IMG/VR virus record: IMGVR_UViG_3300022752_000016
DNA length: 64,000 bases
Strand: one strand, 5' to 3'
DNA from: a virus
Lineage: Duplodnaviria; Caudoviricetes
Under the pieces are notes generated by a model. It saw only the letters and a list, made by a program, of their open reading frames with translations. It was not told the origin of the DNA and made no database searches. The position numbers were made by a program, and so were the translations under genes. Shown in pieces: positions 8,510 through 42,436 of this stretch (its first letter is position 1; each line of letters starts with the position of its first letter).

Positions 8510-9205
8510 ATGGAAGTTATAGATATTAATAAAACATTAGACTTAGTAAAAATAAAGTTTTATAATGAATGGTTATATACTGCACACATATACGACGAGG
8601 GTGATAGTCAATTTCATAAAGAATTAACAAAGCAAGTTGTTACAAAATATGTTGATCCATTAAATTTGTCAAAAGATGCTAAAATTTTAGATTTAGGTTG
8701 TGGTCCTGGATATTTTTTAGATGAAATGAAGGCACGTGATTATACTGATATTATTGGAGTTACATTAAGTCCTGGAGATATAAAAATTTGTGAAAATAAA
8801 GGTCATAAAATTAAAAAATATGATCTAAGTTTCTTGCCACAACAAGAAGGATATTACGATGAATCAGTAGATTTTTTATTTATCCGTCATGCTTTAGAAC
8901 ATAGTCCTTATCCAATTTTTAGTCTTATTGAATATAATCGTGTATTAAAACAAAATGCTAAAATGTATATAGAAGTACCTGCCCCAGATTGTGAGCGTCA
9001 GCATGAATTTAATGCTAATCACTATAGTATACTTGGGTCAATGCAATTAGGGGCATTGCTTGTAAGAACAGGTTTTAAAATTGATATTTTTAATAATTTA
9101 GAATTTGACCTAAACGCTCCTGATAATAACGGCGAATTAAGAACTTATAAAGAAAAATATTATTGTATAATTGCAACAAAGGTTCAACCACTTGATATAA
9201 AATAA
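8510..9205 (+). CDS. Class I SAM-dependent methyltransferase
   Basis: ILDLGCGPG motif I; FLFIRHALEH and YNRVLK..A.MYIEVP motifs. Confidence 0.88.
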   Translation: MEVIDINKTLDLVKIKFYNEWLYTAHIYDEGDSQFHKELTKQVVTKYVDPLNLSKDAKILDLGCGPGYFLDEMKARDYTDIIGVTLSPGDIKICENKGHKIKKYDLSFLPQQEGYYDESVDFLFIRHALEHSPYPIFSLIEYNRVLKQNAKMYIEVPAPDCERQHEFNANHYSILGSMQLGALLVRTGFKIDIFNNLEFDLNAPDNNGELRTYKEKYYCIIATKVQPLDIK

Positions 9206-9239
9206 TTATAAATACTTTTAACAATGTTAAAGGTATTAT

Positions 9240-9881
9240 ATGCTCAAAGACCATTTAAAAAGAAGATATACAGCTAAATGGTGGGATGACAAGGAAGTTG
9301 AACAAGAAAAACTAAACAATGTTTTAGAAACCACATATCTTGCACCAAGTAAACAAGGTATTTACCCCTATACTGTGATTGTTGCTACAAATAGTATAGA
9401 GGGTAAAACTTTTAAAAATTGGTTATTCTATGATCACACATGGTGTGTCGATGGAATCCGTGGAAAAAAATCCGATAATCTTAAAGTTTATAATGGACAA
9501 GTATTAGCTCCTATACTACTAGTTTATCTTTGTCATTCTCAAAATATTTCTAATCAACAATTGATTTTAGAATATACTATGGATACTATAGTAAGTGCAA
9601 CAATAGCAATGTGTGCAGCAGAAGAGCAAGGATTACAAACAGGTTTTTGTGCCTGTCTTCATGGATTGACGATAGCAGAAAAATTAAAAGTTTCTGATGC
9701 AACCTGTACAGTTTTATTAGGTATAGGATATGCAACTCATGATTTGAGAATTAGACGTGGATTATATGATAGTAATGATAAATTGTATGGAATGGATAGA
9801 TCAAATACAGATCCTAGATTAAAAATAAGTAGTAATAGACTACAAAAAAAAGAATATGAAAACTTTTATAAAGTATTATGA
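9240..9881 (+). CDS. Nitroreductase-family (FMN-dependent) protein
   Basis: RRYTAK FMN-binding start, APSKQG, A..AM.AAEEQGLQTGF and LGIGY motifs; upstream TATAAATA at 9207-9214. Confidence 0.8.
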   Translation: MLKDHLKRRYTAKWWDDKEVEQEKLNNVLETTYLAPSKQGIYPYTVIVATNSIEGKTFKNWLFYDHTWCVDGIRGKKSDNLKVYNGQVLAPILLVYLCHSQNISNQQLILEYTMDTIVSATIAMCAAEEQGLQTGFCACLHGLTIAEKLKVSDATCTVLLGIGYATHDLRIRRGLYDSNDKLYGMDRSNTDPRLKISSNRLQKKEYENFYKVL

Positions 9882-10198: not shown

Positions 10199-10240
10199 TA
10201 AAGATTGTTTAAATATTACAAGAGATTTATAAATAATTTT

Positions 10241-11794
10241 ATGAATAAGTCAGGATCAGTAACATTAATTAAAGATCCATATGTAAAAACTGTTTTTAAA
10301 ACACAACAAGAACTTGATGACTTTATCAAATGTTGTGATCCAAAAACTGGTTATTTGCATTTTATGGATAATTTCTTTTATATACAACATCCTACCAAAG
10401 GTAGCATGGTGTATCACCCATATCCATATCAAAAACGTTTAATTGAAACCTATCATAACTATCGTTTTAGTATATCATTGATGCCAAGACAAAGTGGTAA
10501 ATCTACCAGTGCAGCAGGGTATTTATTATGGTATGCAATGTTTGTACCAGATAGTACGATATTGATTGCTGCACACAAATACACAGGTGCTCAAGAAATT
10601 ATGCAACGTATTCGTTATGCTTATGAAAATTGTCCTATGCATATAAAAGCTGGTGTTACAACATATAATAAAGGTAGTCTAGATTTTGAGAATGGTAGTA
10701 GAATTGTAAGTGCAACTACAACAGAAAATACAGGTCGTGGTATGTCTATATCGTTACTGTACTTAGACGAATTTGCATTCGTTAGACCAACCATTGCTGA
10801 ATTGTTTTGGACATCAATAACACCAACATTAGCGACTGGTGGTAAAGCTATTATTACCAGCACACCAAATAGTGATGAAGATCAATTTGCATTAATTTGG
10901 AAACAGGCTACCAAAACAGAGGATGAATATGGAAATCAAACAGAATTAGGTAAGAATGGTTTCAGAGCTTATCGTGCTAATTGGTGGGAACAACCAGGAC
11001 GTGATGAAGCTTGGGCAAAAGAAATCAGAGCACAACTAGGTGAAGATCGTTTTAGGCGTGAGATTGGTTGTGAATTTATTATTGCAGAAGAAACTTTGAT
11101 CGCACCTACTACATTGGTAGATATGGAAGGCATTGAACCTGTACAACGTATGGGACAAGTTCGTTGGTATAAGAAACCAGAGAAAGGTAATATATATGTT
11201 GTTGGATTAGATCCTAGTTTAGGTACAGGAAGTGATCCTGCAGCTATACAAATATACGAAGCTAACACTACCATACAAATAGGTGAGTGGAAACATAATC
11301 AAACAGATATCCCAAATCAAGTTAAATTATTAGCACAAATAAACAAATATATTGAAGAATGCACTAATGAACCAAATAATATATATTACAGTATTGAAAA
11401 TAATACGATAGGAGAAGCCGCATTAATTTCATTAGCAGAATACAGTGAAAGTAATATACCTGGTATATTTTTAAGTGAGCATGGGAAGAAAAGAAAAGGA
11501 TTTAATACAACTCATAAGGTAAAATTAGCAGCGTGTGCTAAATTTAAAACCTTAATTGAAAGTAGAAAAATGAAAGTAAATAGCCGTAGTTTGGTAAGTG
11601 AATTAAAAACTTTTGTAGCAACAGATGGAAGTTATAGAGCGAAAATAGGCGAAACAGATGATTTGGTTATGGCAAGTTTATTAGTAATTAGAATGTTACA
11701 ACATTTAAGTGATTATCATGTAGATTTAGAGACACAAATTCGTGACCATGACGAATACATTCCACCATTGCCATTCTTTGCAGTACTGAACTAG
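10241..11794 (+). CDS. terL: Terminase large subunit, T4 gp17-like (track start 10205; ATG 10241 preferred)
   Basis: Walker A MPRQSGKS, Walker B LYLDEFAF, ITSTPN coupling motif, nuclease-domain GLDPSLG and ETDDLVMA. TATAAATA at 10228-10235 lies just before ATG 10241. Confidence 0.95.
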   Translation: MNKSGSVTLIKDPYVKTVFKTQQELDDFIKCCDPKTGYLHFMDNFFYIQHPTKGSMVYHPYPYQKRLIETYHNYRFSISLMPRQSGKSTSAAGYLLWYAMFVPDSTILIAAHKYTGAQEIMQRIRYAYENCPMHIKAGVTTYNKGSLDFENGSRIVSATTTENTGRGMSISLLYLDEFAFVRPTIAELFWTSITPTLATGGKAIITSTPNSDEDQFALIWKQATKTEDEYGNQTELGKNGFRAYRANWWEQPGRDEAWAKEIRAQLGEDRFRREIGCEFIIAEETLIAPTTLVDMEGIEPVQRMGQVRWYKKPEKGNIYVVGLDPSLGTGSDPAAIQIYEANTTIQIGEWKHNQTDIPNQVKLLAQINKYIEECTNEPNNIYYSIENNTIGEAALISLAEYSESNIPGIFLSEHGKKRKGFNTTHKVKLAACAKFKTLIESRKMKVNSRSLVSELKTFVATDGSYRAKIGETDDLVMASLLVIRMLQHLSDYHVDLETQIRDHDEYIPPLPFFAVLN

Positions 11795-11812: not shown

Positions 11813-14629
11813 ATGCCACTAGACAAAAATTCTTACAATCTTAAATTATATAACCTGTTAAAGACACGAGGTTATCGTCCTATTCCATTAGATAGTAAAG
11901 GCGAACGTTCAGAAGCACCACAGGAAGCAGATGTTTTCAAGTTTACTTTTTCAAAAGCTGATGAAAAAGTAGGCACAATGTATGCAACTGTAGAAGAAGG
12001 TGACATAGTCCTTTATTATGATGAAGATGAAGTTAGTAAATCAAGCGATGCTAATACATCAGGAACAGAGTTTACTGATAGTTTTACAGGATTGATAAGA
12101 CATTTAAAGCATTGGGCAATGACAAGACAATTAGGTTTTAGAACTGAACCTGATGACAAATTAGGTAGTGATATGGCGCAAAGGGAATATATGAAAAAGA
12201 AAGAAAACATTAGCGAGGGATATTATCCCATGGGTAAATCAGCAAGTTACAATGATGCTGTACCTACAGTAAAAATTATTTTACAACATACTCGCCAAAT
12301 ACAAGAGGGTGAACAACGTTTTCGCCATGTAAGTAAGATATTTTTAGAAAACACTTTAGGTGAAAGAATTCTTGCACCAACTATTCGTCCTGGCATTGCC
12401 CAAGTATATGCCAGACATATTGCTGAAGGTGGAGTTCCTAATGATGAGCGTTGGAATCATATTAAAAGCCTTTGTGAAGATTATAGTAAAATGGCAGGTT
12501 TTGTTCGTGCTGTAAAAAATAATCAATTTAATGAATCAGCACAACAATTAGTTAATGAAGGTGTTAATCATTATCAAAGTTTGCGTGAAACCTTAGGAAG
12601 AATGCGTGGTCATCGTGGGTATAACGCTTATTTTGAAAGTTGGACGCCAACATTAATGGAAGAGGAAAATTCTGATAATACATTAAATGAATTATTTGTC
12701 CAAGAAACATTAGATCCTAGAATTGAAAGTGTTCTTCCAATATTAAGTAAATTAAGAAAAACAGTTGGTGAAATGAAAGAAGTTAATGAATTAGCGGAAT
12801 GGGCTGAAGAATTAACTGAAGCGCCTGGTGCCGAAACATTAGCACATAATGAAAAAACAGAAAAGTCACGTTTGGATGCATTTGACCTAGAGGAAAGTGA
12901 TGATGCAGTAAAAGCAGGTCAAGTAGCCCGTGATAAAATTAAGAAGCCTGCGTTTATGCGTAAAGCAGCAGGCGAGAGGCCAGCCACATTAGGTGATGTT
13001 GAAAGATCACAGCAGCATCGTAGTAGCCAAGCAATGGTTGGTCAAAAAGGTGAAGAAGTTGAAGAAAGTGGATTACAAGCATATCTTGGTAATAAGAAGT
13101 ATGGCAAAGATGGTATGGATGCTTTACGCAAAGCAGGGCGTGATGGTGCAAGCAAAGAAAAAATGGCTAAGATTCGTGCCAAGTATGACAAATTAGATGA
13201 AGAAGGTGTGGCGGAAGCAGCCAAATGGCGTGATCCAAAGTATAAAGATAAACTCTATACACAAGAACCCGGTGATAGTGATGACTATGACAATATTGGC
13301 TATGGATACGATTTTCCAGAACGGCCAGAAAATGACCCAGGTCAGAAACGTAGAATGGGTGGTGTAGGCAGTGAATTTGATCGCAATGACCCTTTGGTCA
13401 AGGGGCAGGGCATTGGTCGTAGCGGCATCAAGCACAGCCTCAATCTTGCTGGCAAGAGAAAAGGTCTGCCGTCAAGAGATCAAATCACCAGCCTTAAAGG
13501 CAGTATCAAAGATGCACATGGAAAACATCGCAAGCCCAATTTGCCAGAGCAAGGTGTGGCGGAAGGCTGGAATGACCATTTAGATGATCCTGATGATTAT
13601 GAAGGACATTTGGAAAGATTGCGTGATTTAGCAGACCTAAAGCGTATGCAGGATAGAGAAAAAGAATCTACGGATAAAGAAGATAATAGTAAAAAAAAAG
13701 TAGATGAGGTTAATCCACATTATTACGATAGTGATTTAGATTATTATGATGCTGTTAGGCGTAGTAAATTACCTAAAATGCCTCGTCCTGGAGATGAGGA
13801 CTTTGAAAAATACGATACCTTTGATAAACCATATGATGACTATGACGACGATGATAAAGATTTAAAGGAAGGTGTAACAAAAAGGTCATTATCAGAAATG
13901 GATTCTCAAGGTTATAAAGGATACAGGGACAATGAAGATAAAGGTAAAGGTCCAGAGAAAGTAGTCAAGCCAGCTAAGGCAAAAGATGTTGCTAAAGATG
14001 CTGAAAAAGAATTGACCAAGGTAATGGATAAAGCACACAAGAAAGATGTGGCAGAAGGCAGTGGCTCAAAATACAAAGTTAAATCTATTGGTAAAGATAG
14101 TAAAGGTGATTATTATATAAGTCCAGTCACTGGTAAAAAAGTATATAAGTCAGGAGTTAATAAAGGTGATCACGAAAATCCTAAAACAGGAGAAATTAAA
14201 AAAGGTGTGGCGGAAGGCTCGCTGCGTGAATTCGCACCCGATGATGGGGGTGACGGTGGCGATGATGGGTTCAGTGAAGAAACACTAAAGCGATTTGCGG
14301 CACAATGGTACAACGGTGATGAAGATCCCAGGATCGAACGTGCCCTAGCAGCAGCTGGTTGGGAGATCGGACAGGATGAGGGCTACGACGATGAGCCCGG
14401 TGTGTTCGTGGTACAGGTTGGTGATGTCAACGGCAATAGCTATCTAAGTTGGCCAGCACACGAATTGAAGCAAGGTGTCTCGGAAGACCTAGATGCTAAT
14501 CAAAAGCGTGTAGGTCAATTGGGCCCAACTGAAAAAGTCAAAAATAATAATATTGGTAAATTGGTTGGAGCAAGTGAATCAATACAACATGATCCATTAA
14601 AAGATATTTTAAGATTATCGGGTAAATAA
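11813..14629 (+). CDS. 938-aa modular protein: globular-looking N-terminal part, then charged cassettes separated by GVAE(G)-type motifs; putative processed head/internal polyprotein
   Basis: EGVAEA, QGVAEG, KDVAEG, KGVAEG, QGVSED and many other [LIV]xE motifs; located directly after terL. Confidence 0.85.
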   Translation: MPLDKNSYNLKLYNLLKTRGYRPIPLDSKGERSEAPQEADVFKFTFSKADEKVGTMYATVEEGDIVLYYDEDEVSKSSDANTSGTEFTDSFTGLIRHLKHWAMTRQLGFRTEPDDKLGSDMAQREYMKKKENISEGYYPMGKSASYNDAVPTVKIILQHTRQIQEGEQRFRHVSKIFLENTLGERILAPTIRPGIAQVYARHIAEGGVPNDERWNHIKSLCEDYSKMAGFVRAVKNNQFNESAQQLVNEGVNHYQSLRETLGRMRGHRGYNAYFESWTPTLMEEENSDNTLNELFVQETLDPRIESVLPILSKLRKTVGEMKEVNELAEWAEELTEAPGAETLAHNEKTEKSRLDAFDLEESDDAVKAGQVARDKIKKPAFMRKAAGERPATLGDVERSQQHRSSQAMVGQKGEEVEESGLQAYLGNKKYGKDGMDALRKAGRDGASKEKMAKIRAKYDKLDEEGVAEAAKWRDPKYKDKLYTQEPGDSDDYDNIGYGYDFPERPENDPGQKRRMGGVGSEFDRNDPLVKGQGIGRSGIKHSLNLAGKRKGLPSRDQITSLKGSIKDAHGKHRKPNLPEQGVAEGWNDHLDDPDDYEGHLERLRDLADLKRMQDREKESTDKEDNSKKKVDEVNPHYYDSDLDYYDAVRRSKLPKMPRPGDEDFEKYDTFDKPYDDYDDDDKDLKEGVTKRSLSEMDSQGYKGYRDNEDKGKGPEKVVKPAKAKDVAKDAEKELTKVMDKAHKKDVAEGSGSKYKVKSIGKDSKGDYYISPVTGKKVYKSGVNKGDHENPKTGEIKKGVAEGSLREFAPDDGGDGGDDGFSEETLKRFAAQWYNGDEDPRIERALAAAGWEIGQDEGYDDEPGVFVVQVGDVNGNSYLSWPAHELKQGVSEDLDANQKRVGQLGPTEKVKNNNIGKLVGASESIQHDPLKDILRLSGK
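13203..14486 (+). repeat. Dispersed in-frame 15-nt direct repeat AAGGTGTGGCGGAAG (3 exact copies, 2 variants)
   Basis: Exact at 13203-13217, 13551-13565 and 14202-14216. Variants AAGATGTGGCAGAAG at 14043-14057 and AAGGTGTCTCGGAAG at 14472-14486. All spacings (348, 492, 159, 270) are multiples of 3. Confidence 0.92.
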
Positions 14630-14638
14630 ACTTACAAA

Positions 14639-14662
14639 AAACCGCACAAAAAAGTGCGGTTT
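14639..14662. terminator. Stem-loop AAACCGCAC-AAAAAA-GTGCGGTTT, probable terminator after the 938-aa gene
   Basis: 9-bp inverted repeat 10 nt after the stop codon. Confidence 0.6.
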
Positions 14663-14685
14663 ACCATATTTGGGATAAATATATA

Positions 14686-14714
14686 TTGACACAGCGTATT
14701 ATGTAGTTTATAAT
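14686..14714 (+). promoter_or_regulatory. Perfect sigma70 promoter TTGACA-N17-TATAAT for the SSB operon; late box GATAAATA just upstream (14674-14681)
   Basis: TTGACA 14686-14691, TATAAT 14709-14714. Confidence 0.9.
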
Positions 14715-14782: not shown

Positions 14783-15799
14783 ATGGCAAGTTTAGCAGAT
14801 ATCCGCGCAAGAATCGCAGCGCAAGAAAACAAAACACAAAAAGGTCAAATCACGACCGACAACGCAGTATATCCTCACTGGAATATGGAAGAAGGTACAG
14901 TTGCTACTATTCGTTTCCTACCAGATGCAGATTCAAACAATACGTTCTTTTGGGTAGAACGTCAAATCATCAAGCTTCCCTTCAATGGGCTTAAGGGTGA
15001 TCCTAATGTAAAACAAATTACTGTACAAGTACCTTGTGCTGAGATGTATGGCGATACTTGCCCAGTACTAACTGAAGTTCGTCCTTGGTATAAAGATGAA
15101 ACACTAAAAGAAATGGCAAATAAATATTGGAAAAAGCGTAGTTATCTATTCCAAGCTTTTGTTCGTCAAAATCCAATTGGTGATGATAAGACACCAGCTA
15201 ATCCAATTCGTAGACTTGTGATAAGTCCACAGATTTTCACAATTATCAAATCAAGTTTGATGGATCCTGAAATGGAAGAATTACCCACTGATTATGTACG
15301 TGGGTTGGATTTTAATATTAAGAAAACTAGTAAAGGTGGTTATGCTGATTATTCAACAAGTAACTGGGCACGTAAAGAAAGTCCATTGACTGAAGCAGAG
15401 CAAGCAGCAATTGAAGCACATGGATTATTTAATCTAGCAGATTTCTTACCAAAGCGTCCTAATGAAGCAGAATTGAATATTATTAAAGAAATGTTTGAAG
15501 CTTCGGTAGATGGGCAACCTTATGACAATGATCGTTGGGGTTCGTATTATCGTCCCTTTGGAGTTGATGCTCCGCAACATCAGGTAGATAGTGATAGCGA
15601 AACTGTTACAGAAAAGAAAGTATCAGTTTCAGTTTCAAAGCCTGCTGTTTCGAAGCCTGATGTTAAAGAAGAAACTGCTCCATGGGAAGATGAACCAGCT
15701 GAGGCAAGTCAACCTGTTAATATTCCAAAGTCAACATCAAGTGATAAGGCACAAGATATTTTAGCAATGATTCGTGCCCGTCAAAACAAGACAGCCTAA
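14783..15799 (+). CDS. ssb: Single-stranded DNA-binding protein, T4 gp32-like
   Basis: A.IRFLPD, C...G..CPV, YWKKRSYLFQ, G.DF.IKK..KGGYADYS.S motifs; acidic linker; C-terminal ILAMIRAR. Confidence 0.9.
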   Translation: MASLADIRARIAAQENKTQKGQITTDNAVYPHWNMEEGTVATIRFLPDADSNNTFFWVERQIIKLPFNGLKGDPNVKQITVQVPCAEMYGDTCPVLTEVRPWYKDETLKEMANKYWKKRSYLFQAFVRQNPIGDDKTPANPIRRLVISPQIFTIIKSSLMDPEMEELPTDYVRGLDFNIKKTSKGGYADYSTSNWARKESPLTEAEQAAIEAHGLFNLADFLPKRPNEAELNIIKEMFEASVDGQPYDNDRWGSYYRPFGVDAPQHQVDSDSETVTEKKVSVSVSKPAVSKPDVKEETAPWEDEPAEASQPVNIPKSTSSDKAQDILAMIRARQNKTA

Positions 15800-15807
15800 G
15801 GTAACAC

Positions 15808-15826
15808 GGGAGGATTAATTCCTCCC
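15808..15826 (+). terminator. GC-rich hairpin GGGAGGA-TTAAT-TCCTCCC after ssb
   Basis: 7-bp stem 9 nt after the stop; weak U-tract. Confidence 0.5.
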
Positions 15827-15846
15827 TATTCAATTAGGAGAATACA

Positions 15847-16083
15847 ATGACGTTACCAGACGAAAGATACAGAGCCTTAAAACAGGGCAAAAAGTTATTA
15901 GAGGAATTGTGCGACCCAGGTCGCACACCACGTGTTCCTAGTTTAATCAGAGATAGGGCAAGGGCAGCATTACGACATTACCCGAGTGATTATGAATTGG
16001 ATCGTATTGCTGATAGTTGTCCAGATATGCTTGATAAGATAAGTTTTTCTGATAAACTATACATGAAAATAGCAAACAAATAA
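15847..16083 (+). CDS. Conserved-looking small phage protein (MTLPDERYRA...LRHYP)
   Basis: Strong RBS AGGAG; 78 aa. Confidence 0.8.
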   Translation: MTLPDERYRALKQGKKLLEELCDPGRTPRVPSLIRDRARAALRHYPSDYELDRIADSCPDMLDKISFSDKLYMKIANK

Positions 16084-16093
16084 GGAGAGACCC

Positions 16094-17161
16094 TTGGGGA
16101 AACCGTTCGATGTTAGTAAATTTAGAAAAGATATTACCAAGTCCATTGAGGGACTTAGTATCGGGTTTAACGATCCAACAGATTGGATTAGTACAGGAAA
16201 TCACGCACTTAATTATCTCATTAGTGGTGATTTTAATAAAGGCGTACCTCTTGGTAAAGTTACTGTCTTTGCCGGAGAGTCAGGATCAGGAAAAAGTTAT
16301 ATCTGTGCAGGAAATCTCGTCCGTCACGCACAACAACAAGGGATCTTTGTCGTATTGGTCGATACTGAAAATGCGCTTGATGAAGATTGGTTACATAACT
16401 TGGGAGTTGATACGTCAGAAGAAAAACTATTAAAACTTAATATGGCAATGATTGATGATGTTGCCAAAACTATTAGCGAGTTTATGAAAGGATATCGCAC
16501 TATTCCTAGTGAAGATCGTCCTAAAGTACTTTTTATTATTGATAGCTTAGGAATGTTACTTACTCCTACTGATGTTAATCAATTTGAAGGCGGTGATTTA
16601 AAAGGTGATATGGGTCGTAAACCAAAAGCACTAACCGCACTAGTACGTAATTGTGTAAATATGTTTGGTAGTCACAATGTTGGATTGGTAGCTACAAATC
16701 ATACCTACGCAAGTCAGGATATGTTTGATCCTGACGATAAAATCTCAGGTGGGCAAGGCTTTATCTATGCAAGTTCAATTGTTGTAGCAATGAAAAAATT
16801 GAAACTTAAAGAAGATGAAGATGGTAATAAAACAAGTGAAGTCCTTGGTATTCGTAGTGCTTGTAAAGTAATGAAAACACGTTATGCTAAACCTTTTGAA
16901 AGTGTACAAGTAAAGATTCCATATAGTACAGGAATGAATCCATATAGTGGGTTGTTAGATTTATTTGAAAAATCAGGGCTGCTTGTAAAAGAAGGCAATC
17001 GTTTAAGCTACACTACGTTAGATGGTGAAGTTATCAAACATTTCCGTAAAGGTTGGGAAACTAATACTGATAATTGTTTAGATACGGTTATGAGTGAGTA
17101 TAGTAAAAGAAACGAAAATAAACTAAGTAATGTAACAACTGAGGAGGAAGTTACAGAATGA
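16094..17161 (+). CDS. uvsX: RecA/UvsX-like recombinase (TTG start)
   Basis: ISTG...LNYLISG, Walker A GESGSGKS, VDTENALD, IIDSLG, SGGQGFIYASS and KTRY.KPF; RBS AAGGAG. Confidence 0.93.
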   Translation: MGKPFDVSKFRKDITKSIEGLSIGFNDPTDWISTGNHALNYLISGDFNKGVPLGKVTVFAGESGSGKSYICAGNLVRHAQQQGIFVVLVDTENALDEDWLHNLGVDTSEEKLLKLNMAMIDDVAKTISEFMKGYRTIPSEDRPKVLFIIDSLGMLLTPTDVNQFEGGDLKGDMGRKPKALTALVRNCVNMFGSHNVGLVATNHTYASQDMFDPDDKISGGQGFIYASSIVVAMKKLKLKEDEDGNKTSEVLGIRSACKVMKTRYAKPFESVQVKIPYSTGMNPYSGLLDLFEKSGLLVKEGNRLSYTTLDGEVIKHFRKGWETNTDNCLDTVMSEYSKRNENKLSNVTTEEEVTE

Positions 17162-17403
17162 GTTTAACATTGATTAGTGAAGCATGGGATGCATTACGCC
17201 AACATATCCAAATGGCAGATAAAAGTGACGCTGCCGATACTTTGGTTAATTTGTTAATTGATAACGGGTATGATGTAGATGAGATTAAAGAAAATTTTCG
17301 TGGGGATAAAGACATTGCTAATGCTCTAGTTTATTTTAGTGAACAGGACGATTATATAGAAGATTATGAGGATGACAATTTAACCGACGATGATGAATGG
17401 TGA
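17158..17403 (+). CDS. Small acidic hypothetical protein
   Basis: Coupled to the recA stop; very acidic C-terminus. Confidence 0.75.
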   Translation: MSLTLISEAWDALRQHIQMADKSDAADTLVNLLIDNGYDVDEIKENFRGDKDIANALVYFSEQDDYIEDYEDDNLTDDDEW

Positions 17404-17407
17404 TTAA

Positions 17408-17866
17408 GTGAGTTGGTATTCACAGATAACAGGTGACTTATCTGTTATCCCTGATTTTATTACGCACTATGAGTCTGAGTTAAACTCAGCCAAAAAAGAT
17501 GTAAAAATATTTGGTAATGTTGAAAAGAACATTTCAGCATTACCTGGTATTACTGAACATCGTTTTAATCAACTACAAGAAATTGAAGCAGTATTAAATT
17601 TCTTAAATGTACAGCTAAGAAAAATTCGCCGAAAACATTTTCAAAAATATCTTGAGGCGTATAATAGAGTTTTAACAAGTCGTGATGCTGAAAAATATGT
17701 TGATGGGGAGGGTGAAGTTATTGACTTTGAGACAATCATCAATGATGTAGCATTGTTAAGAAACAAGTGGTTGGGCGTAATGAAAGGTCTAGATAGTAAA
17801 AACTTTATGCTAGGTCATATTGTAAGATTACGTTCAGCTGGTATGGAAGATATAACCGTAAGTTAA
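17408..17866 (+). CDS. uvsY: UvsY-like recombination mediator (GTG start)
   Basis: Helical protein with YLE.Y.R.L.SRDAEKYVDGE and LRSAGMED, typical of UvsY; near uvsX. Confidence 0.75.
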   Translation: MSWYSQITGDLSVIPDFITHYESELNSAKKDVKIFGNVEKNISALPGITEHRFNQLQEIEAVLNFLNVQLRKIRRKHFQKYLEAYNRVLTSRDAEKYVDGEGEVIDFETIINDVALLRNKWLGVMKGLDSKNFMLGHIVRLRSAGMEDITVS

Positions 17867-40767: not shown

Positions 40768-42157
40768 TAATGATGTGCAATTGTTATTTTTGCGTATGAT
40801 GGTAACTAATTCAGAATTATATACAAGAATTATGAATATAATGAATGTAAAAAACTTTAATAAAAATTTGTTGCCTGTAGCAGAATTTATAGTTGAGCAT
40901 AGTAAAAAGTATAATGTAATGCCTGAATCAATACAAATAAAGGCTACTACAGGTATTGAAGTAGAAGTTATACAAGATTTAGATGAAGGACATTATGAAT
41001 GGTTTCTTGAGGAATTTGAAGCATTTACTAAAAGACAAGAACTAGAACGAGCTATCTTAAAAAGTGCTGACCTATTAGAGAAAGGAGAATACGATCCTGT
41101 AGAAAAACTAATTAAAGATGCTGTGCAGATTAGTTTACAGCGTGATATGGGTACAGATTATTTTGCTGACCCAAAAGCTAGATTAATGGCATTAAAATCA
41201 AATAACGGACAAAACAGCACAGGTTGGCCTAGTATGGATCAAAAACTATATGGTGGCTTTAATCGTGGTGAATTACAAATCTTTGCAGGTGGTAGTGGAT
41301 CTGGTAAATCGTTGTTTATGCAAAATCTTGCGGTGAATTGGGCACAAGCAGGACTGTCAGGAGTATATATTACATTAGAACTTAGTGAAGGTTTATGTAG
41401 TATGCGTATTGATAGTATGATGACGGATACAAGTAGCCGTGAAATTTTCAAAGACATTGATAATGTTGAGATGAAGGTTAAAATGGCAGCTAGGAAAGCA
41501 GGAAAATTGCGTATTAAATATATGCCTGCACAATCTACTGTAAATGATATTCGTGCTTATTGTAAAGAATTACAAATACAAACAGGCATAAAGATTGACT
41601 TTTTGTGTGTAGATTACTTAGACTTATTAATGCCCGTCAGTGCTAAGGTTAGCCCTAGTGATTTATTTGTCAAAGACAAATATGTTAGTGAAGAATTACG
41701 TAATTTAAGTAAAGAATTAAATGTATTATTTGTAACTGCAAGTCAACTAAATCGTACAGCGGTAGATGAGATTGAATTTGATCATAGTCATATAAGCGGT
41801 GGTATTAGTAAAATCAACACAGCAGATAATGTATTTGGTATTTTCACAAGTCGTAGTATGAGAGAGCGTGGTCAATATCAGTTACAATTAATGAAAACTA
41901 GGAGTAGCAGTGGTGTAGGACAAAAAATTGAATTAGATTTTAACATTGAAACATTAAGGATAACTGATAGTAATGAAGAAGTAAAACAATATTCACAACC
42001 AAGTCCAACTGAAATTTTAAATAAAATTCGTCCAAACAATACAGTTAATGACGTTATACAGAACACTGTACAGCCTCAAACAGGCAAAGTTGTTGCGGAT
42101 GTTCAGAGTAGCAAACTAAAGTCTTTGTTAAATAGTTTACAGAAACAAAATCAATAA
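40751..42157 (+). CDS. Replicative helicase, DnaB/T4 gp41-like
   Basis: STGWPSMDQKLYGG, GGSGSGKS, YITLEL, VDYLDL, TASQLNR and KTR. Confidence 0.93.
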   Translation: MLKDYNNDVQLLFLRMMVTNSELYTRIMNIMNVKNFNKNLLPVAEFIVEHSKKYNVMPESIQIKATTGIEVEVIQDLDEGHYEWFLEEFEAFTKRQELERAILKSADLLEKGEYDPVEKLIKDAVQISLQRDMGTDYFADPKARLMALKSNNGQNSTGWPSMDQKLYGGFNRGELQIFAGGSGSGKSLFMQNLAVNWAQAGLSGVYITLELSEGLCSMRIDSMMTDTSSREIFKDIDNVEMKVKMAARKAGKLRIKYMPAQSTVNDIRAYCKELQIQTGIKIDFLCVDYLDLLMPVSAKVSPSDLFVKDKYVSEELRNLSKELNVLFVTASQLNRTAVDEIEFDHSHISGGISKINTADNVFGIFTSRSMRERGQYQLQLMKTRSSSGVGQKIELDFNIETLRITDSNEEVKQYSQPSPTEILNKIRPNNTVNDVIQNTVQPQTGKVVADVQSSKLKSLLNSLQKQNQ

Positions 42158-42187
42158 CCCGAATAAATACATACGGGAAATAATCTT

Positions 42188-42436
42188 ATGCAAAAGAAAA
42201 CCAAAAGTTTACTAGAAGAATTAGAAGCAATCGGTAATAATAGAGACATGAATCTAGTGATAGAAAATAGAGCGGTAAACATTATAACCAGTGCTATTAA
42301 TTTAATAGAACTTATGAATAGACATTATCAAAAAGATAAGGCTGATGTTTTGGAGCGTAGACTATTAAGTGCTATTAAAAATAAAGATAGAAATAAATTT
42401 TCTAAGTCATTAAGGAAGAAAGATGAAAATAGTTGA
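42188..42436 (+). CDS. Small hypothetical protein (T.S.LEEL)
   Basis: Late-type AATAAATA at 42162; 82 aa. Confidence 0.75.
   Translation: MQKKTKSLLEELEAIGNNRDMNLVIENRAVNIITSAINLIELMNRHYQKDKADVLERRLLSAIKNKDRNKFSKSLRKKDENS

Follow-up and report, generated by a model that had tools for sequence, protein, structure and literature searches.

What is a short DNA repeat, conserved even at synonymous positions, doing inside a single protein-coding gene of a phage? The question is raised by a 64,000-nucleotide stretch of viral DNA (hereafter the window), which occupies 64001-128000 in a viral contig of 137 kb from IMG/VR (record IMGVR_UViG_3300022752_000016; 32% GC, about 40% complete). The repeat lies in P0001 (11813..14629, + strand), an open reading frame (ORF) of 938 residues situated directly 3' of the large terminase subunit gene, terL. 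The 15-mer AAGGTGTGGCGGAAG is found exactly at 13203, 13551 and 14202 and as two-mismatch variants at 14043 and 14472. The five copies, referred to below as joints, are all on the + strand, are spaced by 348, 492, 159 and 270 nt, and are all in frame in P0001, where they read (G/D)V(A/S)E. We think it fairly probable (roughly 60%) that P0001 is a polyprotein carried in the capsid, and that its cassettes change places by recombination at a joint which is at the same time a protease site. Cassettes are gained, lost and replaced exactly at the joints, in frame, between genes and between phages, and their mobility at the joint is well supported; protease processing and a cargo role, for which we argue by analogy, are plausible but unproven.

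The array had been described in an earlier note made from the sequence alone, and a motif scan with 100 shuffles bore out the repeat, its variants, its frame and its spacings. With up to three mismatches allowed, the window holds seven matches to the 15-mer, against a mean of 0.64 in shuffled sequence, and none of the 100 shuffles reached seven. The codons of the repeat are as unusual for this genome as the note had asserted: GTG makes up 7.6% of the Val codons of the contig and GCG 5.5% of the Ala codons, so that three identical GTG-GCG pairs are not explained by codon preference.

P0001 begins with a conserved N-terminal domain (N-domain; residues 1-335, 11813..12817), the probable virion anchor, followed by a linker (residues 336-464, 12818..13204). 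Joint 1 (13203..13217, exact, E-GVAE-A) opens onto cas1 (residues 469-580, 13217..13552), which is basic and horizontally acquired; joint 2 (13551..13565, exact, Q-GVAE-G) onto cas2 (residues 585-744, 13565..14044), which is acidic, Lys-rich and of a native-like G+C content at third codon positions (GC3) of 0.23; joint 3 (14043..14057, two mismatches, K-DVAE-G) onto cas3 (residues 749-797, 14057..14203), small, Lys/Gly-rich and with a GC3 of 0.125; and joint 4 (14202..14216, exact, K-GVAE-G) onto cas4 (residues 802-887, 14216..14473), a small acidic alpha/beta domain that was likewise acquired horizontally. Joint 5 (14472..14486, two mismatches, Q-GVSE-D) precedes a conserved tail module (residues 892-938, beginning DLDANQKRVGQLGPTEK; 14486..14629 with the stop codon). 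Composition changes sharply along this chain. GC is 46.4% in 13220-13549 and 54.0% in 14219-14470, confirming earlier estimates of about 46% and 54%, and is 30-35% in the other segments; the GC3 of the same two segments is 0.39 and 0.48, that of the gene's remaining parts 0.13-0.23. Since the shift is visible in GC3, it is not solely a matter of amino-acid content, an explanation that is thereby ruled out. Whether judged by GC or by GC3 of the segments, the shifts coincide with the repeat boundaries, and they match the higher-GC donor phages described below.

The origin of these boundaries can be approached through the closest relative, L161, whose N-domain and linker are 95% and 94% identical to those of P0001. 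The two sequences are collinear at about 86% nucleotide identity from terL to 13217; homology then stops, at joint 1, and starts again from 13551, at joint 2. L161 lacks cas1, and its single site AAGGTATGGAAGAAG (GMEE) aligns to both joints, so that cas1 plus one joint constitutes a precise 348-bp insertion that looks like a target duplication. Between 13636 and 14469 modules differ or are reordered between the two phages. Homology restarts at 14469, by joint 5, and from 14637, through gp32 and UvsX onward, the sequences are collinear again at 85%.

An exhaustive profile search of a representative library returned 2229 homologues of P0001, which measure 378-1601 residues among the 150 listed and have essentially the N-terminal ~340 residues in common. 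In 80 orthologous loci the N-domain is 50-95% identical and the ORFs are 391-959 residues long; neither cas1 nor cas4 occurs in any of these 80. The tail module is kept in most orthologues, with up to 94% identity, and often has an exact GVAE joint directly before it. In several of them the C-terminal block of cas2 follows the tail instead of preceding cas3, and the exact GVAE word connects a left-hand module, '...KYDKLDE[EQ]', with the tail in L166 and L170 and with another cassette in L190. The N-domain, the linker, the four cassettes and the tail are each distributed separately. A conserved N-terminus followed by cassettes that vary in number, order and content, with breakpoints at the repeat, had been anticipated in the earlier note; this is what is seen in the orthologue alignment, in L161 and in a lake strain considered below.

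Cassettes also recur in other genes and other phages with the same repeat at their flanks, again as predicted. The other viral contigs found to carry cas1 number 77, those with cas4 80, and no contig belongs to both sets. Most copies of cas4 lie in ORFs without a detectable N-domain, and in L085, L103 and others cas1 and the N-domain are in different ORFs. The nucleotide identity of cas1 is 96.7% with the copy in L085 and 84-87% with those in L084, L086 and L091; the alignments span ~13203 to ~13565 and end there, the flanks outside the word being unrelated between loci. Copies of cas3 that are 84-93% identical stand between exact GVAE joints in L242-L249, with different neighbours. The contigs carrying the closest copies of cas1 and cas4 have GC contents of 39-49% (41-49% for the phages with the closest cas4), and their own GC3 matches that of the cassette, which identifies these composition islands in a phage of 32% GC as recent imports. 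Both cassettes of P0001 were acquired through the joint from higher-GC phages, and the rare GTG-GCG codons arrived together with them. A search of cultured phages found cas1 and cas4 in none. In one locus, L124 (5001-5765), two cas1-like modules were noticed in tandem within a single ORF of 1015 residues, indicating that cassettes can duplicate locally too.

The window is a metagenomic contig and its GC-rich segments look foreign, so one could suspect a chance repeat, or a chimeric assembly formed at short repeats. In seven public metagenome runs, 80% or more of the words sampled from 12900-14700 are present; one of them may be where the window's DNA came from, and the other six, belonging to three studies, are of freshwater or lake origin. 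In two of these, X2 and X3, contigs cross every joint with 0 differences from the window; as the contigs come from independent runs and studies, the arrangement is real and no product of assembly. In addition, 15 nt is shorter than assembler k-mers, and each insertion is in frame. Taken with the shuffles, none of which attained the observed number of matches, these contigs refute both chance and chimera, to which we attach a negligible probability.

The lake data also hold a strain, in run X8, with a backbone 95-99% identical to the window and zero cover over cas1 and over cas3 and cas4. Its contigs part from the window at 13220 (joint 1), 13548, 14051 (joint 3) and 14490 (by joint 5, where they rejoin it), all within a few bases of joints, and the reading frame is kept as they continue into different sequence. 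What comes after 14216-14218 varies in X3 and X5, where at least five distinct sequences were seen. Flanks of the type that surrounds cas1 in L085 occur in these lake runs, in X5 at greater depth than the window backbone; possible donor and recipient types thus coexist in the same runs. Such turnover at the level of strains makes an arms-race hypothesis testable with time-series metagenomes. A separate peculiarity of X3 and X5 is the summed contig depth over 14059-14241 (cas3 and joint 4), which is ~770-2,900 compared with ~50-140 in the flanks; this excess indicates that cas3-like modules are common to several abundant phages there.

Is the joint conserved as a peptide or as DNA? Codon statistics were drawn from 193 distinct ORFs of the fetched loci. 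At the joint, GTG encodes the Val of GVAE in 90% of cases and GCG the Ala of G[VM]AE in 67%; in the remainder of these ORFs the two codons account for 18% of Val and 5% of Ala. The exact 12-mer GGTGTGGCGGAA, often seen as CAAGGTGTGGCGGAAGG, accounts for 61 of the 84 GVAE motifs. Copies of cas1 have 8 of 8 motif codons identical where only ~60% of the synonymous codons of the cassette are. Conservation at synonymous sites, as originally claimed, far exceeds what codon usage would give. In 2.27 Mb of loci the 12-mer is present 107 times on the coding strand, in 76 peptide contexts, and never on the opposite strand. An unbiased scan located the exact 15-mer in at least 120 IMG/VR stretches; in the first 80 of these loci, 115 of 116 copies are read as GVAE in the longest ORF (whose median length is 545 residues), 31 of 36 spacings are divisible by three, and 115 contexts are unique. 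The 97 unique segments that have the exact 12-mer on both sides measure 43-676 residues (median 102) and represent 82 families; when a family is seen more than once, its neighbours differ. The N-domain of P0001 is present in only 6 of 128 joint-bearing ORFs. Pfam searches with the 20 largest segments yielded one GNAT domain, DUF6321 and a weak DUF5872, the first two being the clear matches; the GNAT acetyltransferase domain (Pfam E 2e-6) occupies a 575-residue segment between exact GVAE joints in L353 (3365-5089).

How the cassettes would change places, and what becomes of the chain they form, are matters on which we infer rather than observe: this applies to the mechanism of recombination as well as to cleavage, packaging and a cargo or ejection function. 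In our proposal the fixed word, which encodes the commonest version of the boundary, would serve as a microhomology joint for the in-frame insertion, deletion, replacement and reordering of modules. Exchange between genes and co-infecting phages would take place by recombination or template switching on 12-17 nt of identity and would be driven by the phage's own UvsX/UvsY/gp32 system, with mismatched variants of the joint recombining less. Since each exchange within the word rebuilds the word, the process itself would spread and homogenise the exact sequence, and this self-propagation would explain conservation at synonymous sites without selection for evolvability. One could also envisage that recombination between direct repeats releases a mini-circle whose re-insertion at another repeat produces a cassette with one extra joint, as found for cas1 in the comparison with L161.

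The extreme conservation of synonymous sites, with every copy on the coding strand, would equally follow if a dedicated enzyme (a homing-type endonuclease, a nickase or an integrase) recognised the 15-mer and made capture truly site-specific, as in an integron. The jumbo phages of this group are rich in homing endonucleases, one of which lies near the homologue of P0001 in phage PA5oct. No candidate is linked to the joints, however, the neighbours being terL, gp32, UvsX and UvsY. Furthermore, the word is no palindrome and gives no hairpin of the attC type; cassettes are also bounded by variant joints such as GMAE, GLAE and DMEE; and complete genomes contain only 0-4 exact copies. An enzyme of this kind seems to us decidedly improbable. 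We see very little likelihood in selection of GTG-GCG at the level of RNA or translation, for example as a ribosome pause aiding co-translational folding, which would make recombination irrelevant to the conservation. Both codons are rare in all these phages and are placed exactly between domains; yet GMAE joints at the same positions use ordinary codons (GCG is ~19% there by a hand count), a pause could be encoded in many ways while one 12-mer dominates, and homology breaks exactly at the word.

The peptide encoded by the joint resembles the sites at which head proteins are processed. Protease gp21 of T4 cleaves after Glu in L/I-X-E (PMC9026906), and its homologues in giant phages also cleave after Glu, in S/A-X-E or A-X-E (PMC9026906, PMC10052503). 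At the left boundary of cas1, Glu occupies P1 in 22 of 22 unique contexts and V/M/L/I occupies P3 in 18; P2 is free and P1' is mainly Ser or Ala. The right boundary of cas4 conforms to hydrophobic-x-E in 52 of 54 contexts. The T4 motif is here extended to Val or Met at P3. The linker of P0001 has three more hydrophobic-x-E sites (ELTE/A, DLEE/S and EVEE/S), and the protein as a whole has eight strict ones, all in residues 333-888; their density, 0.85 per 100 residues against 0.06 for the genome, amounts to a 14-fold enrichment. Because these boundaries fit the specificity of gp21, the chain would probably be cut into small proteins inside the prohead.

A protease of the gp21 type is encoded by all four complete relatives searched for it (G001, G002, G003 and G005), each of which has a Peptidase_S77 (gp21) gene; G001 has an N-domain orthologue of 60% identity, cas1 is present in G002 and G003, and cas4 in G005. 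A gp23-type capsid protein was present in the three relatives searched for it (G001, G002 and G003). It has LLAE/S-like sites near its N-terminus (~45 residues in for G001), and the gp22-like neighbour of its gene in G001 is rich in such sites. The capsid targeting sequence (CTS) of T4 has 10 residues, of which residues 8 and 10 are the processing determinants (PMC9026906). A CTS-like leader begins 33% of the complete joint-bearing ORFs and 10% of the other ORFs of the same loci, as in MRAHEFIVE, MKAYEFITE, MKIDQLFES, MRAELLYES and MRAKDLFEK. The leaders in L285, L351, L391, L331, L394 and others were seen to resemble the T4 CTS, with hydrophobic-x-E ending at residue 8-10. As to P0001 itself, residues 60-316 are ~27% identical to gp278 of PA5oct, whose record annotates that protein as a virion structural protein by electrospray ionisation tandem mass spectrometry (ESI-MS/MS; PMC7318152). 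The proposal of the earlier note that the chain is packaged in the head and cut at each VAE thus survives as something we infer from the gp21-like boundaries, the proteases of the relatives and the virion homologue in PA5oct, and not as an observation.

It could be argued that P0001 is an uncleaved multidomain virion or accessory protein in which GVAE merely provides a flexible linker where recombinants stay in frame and folded. Linker-based domain shuffling is common, many head proteins of SPN3US are not cleaved (PMC10052503), and the joints do fall in disordered linkers. An AlphaFold2 (AF2) model of cas4 has a confident core (residues 21-90; pLDDT 77-90) between two disordered ends, in which the joint regions lie. 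Set against this are the invariant Glu at P1, the hydrophobic P3 and the variable P2 and P4, a signature of protease sites unlike that of Gly/Ser/Pro-rich linkers, as well as the gp21-type proteases of the lineage and the CTS-like leaders on many joint-bearing ORFs. We therefore judge an uncleaved protein to be unlikely, and return to the reading of P0001 as a processed polyprotein.

Such a polyprotein would consist of a conserved N-terminal anchor and a hypervariable array of small modules. It would enter the prohead by means of its N-domain, other proteins of the kind doing so by their CTS-like leader, and cuts at the joints would release an N-domain of ~38 kDa, linker peptides, cas1 (~117 residues), cas2 (~164), cas3 (~53), cas4 (~90) and the tail (~46). 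These pieces could then act like the internal proteins of T4. Alternatively, the C-terminal array might be sacrificial filler, comparable to the core or scaffold proteins gp22, gp67 and gp68 of T4, that is cut and mostly expelled instead of delivered. T4 core proteins are indeed fragmented at the same motif and largely exit the head (PMC9026906), and cas2 and the linker are of low complexity, charged and probably disordered. Filler would, however, hardly keep the cas1 protein 97% identical while only ~62% of its synonymous codons match, nor account for the conserved folded domain of cas4; purifying selection together with an open repertoire of 82 families suits specific functions better, and fast turnover at strain level suits a role in an arms race. 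This alternative, too, has in our view a small chance of being correct. The conservation of basic cas1 in the face of synonymous divergence and that of the acidic alpha/beta domain of cas4 indicate specific functions, and by analogy with IPI* of T4, which blocks a restriction system (PMC3012670), counteracting host defences would be the most likely role of the cassettes.

Several points weigh against the interpretation of P0001 as a processed and shuffled capsid cargo. Cleavage and packaging of P0001, and cleavage at GVAE joints in general, are assumed by analogy. Neither the protease nor the capsid gene was found on the 137-kb contig of the window, which is ~40% complete, and P0001 starts with MPLDKNSYNLKLYNLL, lacking a CTS-like leader. 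Fold, Atlas and Pfam searches assigned a function to no cassette. The regular expression for the CTS and the breakpoint statistic were devised after the data were seen. Fifteen nucleotides are short for homologous recombination, of which no intermediate was seen. Finally, complete relatives carry only 0-4 exact 12-mers each (0 for a control pattern), and GMAE and other variant joints show no codon constraint, from which it follows that the exact word is one widespread allele of the joint and no universal signal.

Do known systems offer a precedent? In polymorphic toxins such as CdiA (VENN) and Rhs (PxxxxDPxGL), a junction motif divides a constant part from exchangeable C-terminal modules and provides both a point of processing and homology for replacement. 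These toxins are bacterial, with one variable tip per protein accompanied by an immunity gene, and they use another motif and another route of delivery.

The internal proteins of T4 (IPI, IPII, IPIII and Alt; PMC9026906, PMC3012670) are likewise small, diverse head proteins of T4-type phages made as precursors and cut after hydrophobic-x-Glu, and they vary strongly between related phages, a short conserved sequence being their sole constant part. They are, however, products of separate genes, each with its N-terminal CTS, whereas here the modules are concatenated behind an anchor in a protein devoid of CTS, and the constant element of P0001 lies inside the protein, as a joint whose DNA sequence is conserved. 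Polyvalent proteins (Iyer et al. 2017, PMC5512222) resemble P0001 in joining many unrelated modules in one polypeptide, in their mosaic evolution and in their proposed delivery with DNA and processing. They differ in having recognisable enzymatic domains and usually their own zincin-like metallopeptidase (MPTase); in P0001 the modules (43-130 residues) are unannotated, a fixed nucleotide word forms the junction, and it is the prohead protease that would do the processing. At E<=0.01 P0001 has no Pfam family that would represent an embedded peptidase (MPTase or papain-like) or a large polyvalent protein-associated domain (LPD) or other effector domain. Proteolysis in the heads of giant phages (phiKZ gp175, 201phi2-1, SPN3US gp245; PMC10052503, PMC5694885) also occurs after Glu and often at several sites per precursor, but in another lineage and at S/A-X-E or A-X-E, and no shared DNA joint or cassette exchange is reported there.

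On the DNA side, the PeSL (early-promoter stem-loop) cassettes of T4-type phages (PMC2839356, PMC4122927) show that, in hyperplastic regions, variable cassettes between short conserved DNA repeats can be inserted, deleted or replaced by recombination, and their mini-circle route would give a cassette plus an extra repeat, as for cas1. They are intergenic promoter and terminator units around whole genes, whereas the GVAE joint is 12-15 nt long, lies within an ORF and is translated; with all joints inside a translated ORF and none in an intergenic sigma70-like promoter with stem-loop terminator, identity with PeSL is rejected. The term "integron-like" of the earlier note finds no support in its strict sense either. 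The 15-nt direct repeat is not self-complementary and lacks the hairpin of attC sites (imperfect inverted repeats of ~55-140 nt around promoterless gene cassettes), and the cassettes are in frame within one ORF; no integrase was seen among the scanned neighbours of P0001, a genome-wide search for one not having been made. A CRISPR array, with repeats of ~23-50 nt and regular non-coding spacers, is excluded by repeats of 15 nt and unequal spacers of 144-477 nt that are all coding, in a single frame. As for inteins, there is no Pfam Hint or intein match, cas1 starts with AAKW and cas4 with SLREF, and neither a Cys/Ser/Thr at +1 nor a terminal His-Asn is present. In the literature covered, which was incomplete and is to that extent weak evidence of novelty, neither the GVAE joint nor a comparable in-frame cassette system was found. 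The proposed capsid-targeted, protease-processed and recombination-shuffled phage cargo, with its unusual, widespread and dual-coded joint, is apparently undescribed.

It is tempting to go further and to regard GGTGTGGCGGAA as a dual-coded "universal joint", at once a prohead-protease site and a maintained recombination signal for the in-frame capture, swapping and reordering of capsid cargo from a shared pool, making it an analogue of the integron across an uncultured clade of freshwater phages. We advance this stronger form only tentatively and consider it more doubtful than otherwise. If the reading of P0001 as a processed polyprotein is correct, giant phages would diversify the contents of their capsids by plugging small modules into a polyprotein and not by evolving whole genes, and one short sequence would see to it that the frame is kept and that the head protease can later set the modules free. 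The joint would be a natural case of overlapping protein and DNA codes, and the polyprotein a natural in-frame design for expression, packaging and processing, comparable to the engineered CTS system of T4. In practical terms, the 12-15-mer, or boundaries of the form hydrophobic-x-Glu, would offer a handle by which to compile, from metagenomes, hundreds of unannotated modules that are candidates for cargo or for anti-defence.

The genomic setting of P0001 was defined by Pfam and PHROG family searches. Upstream is terL (10205..11794, + strand); downstream, also on the + strand, are genes for a gp32-like single-stranded DNA-binding protein (14783-15799), a UvsX-like recombinase (16094-17161) and a UvsY-like mediator (17408-17866), and this block (14783..17866) is a T4-type recombination system. 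The cultured phages nearest to the contig belong to the PA5oct and RaK2-like groups of jumbo phages, and P0001 is encoded by a jumbo phage of fresh water that is uncultured and probably has a T4-type head module. Besides terL, gp32, UvsX and UvsY, the scanned neighbours comprise a methyltransferase, a nitroreductase-like protein and one unassigned ORF. The SAM-dependent methyltransferase and the nitroreductase-family gene are directly 5' of terL (8510-9881), which is odd company for a packaging gene.

P0001 itself matches nothing in Pfam (E<=0.01) or PHROGs. The AF2 model of the N-domain has a mean pLDDT of 76 and no match among solved structures; its neighbours in BFVD are uncharacterised phage proteins, one of them named "Large polyvalent protein-associated domain". 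Comparison of the N-domain and cas4 models with the PDB (Foldseek, VIA-align) and the ESM Atlas brought up no convincing counterpart, and ESM Atlas searches with cas1 and cas4 returned nothing informative. GNAT and KA1-like matches of the N-domain were weak, with low TM scores or Z of ~6, and were not relied on.

Three minor observations deserve mention. In homologues of P0001 the block matching residues ~125-340 is often shifted by 100-900 residues (for example, query 124-419 aligns at 1041-1352 of 1477 residues), which suggests that a second insertion hot spot may exist in or before the N-domain, at residues ~75-125 of P0001 (~12035-12190 in the window). In G001, the similarity of ORFs of 113-139 residues (L278 and L279) to the Gp23 capsid family is confined to its first ~55-60 positions (the ...VGVQPMT... 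region); these small proteins may have arisen from the N-terminus of the capsid protein and act as decoys or assembly factors. Lastly, the window and the searchable genome record, G000, differ at 21 positions within 41352-42273, inside the ORF 40796-42157. In the examples listed the gaps are mostly multiples of three, and the differences look like synonymous microdiversity between two near-identical records.

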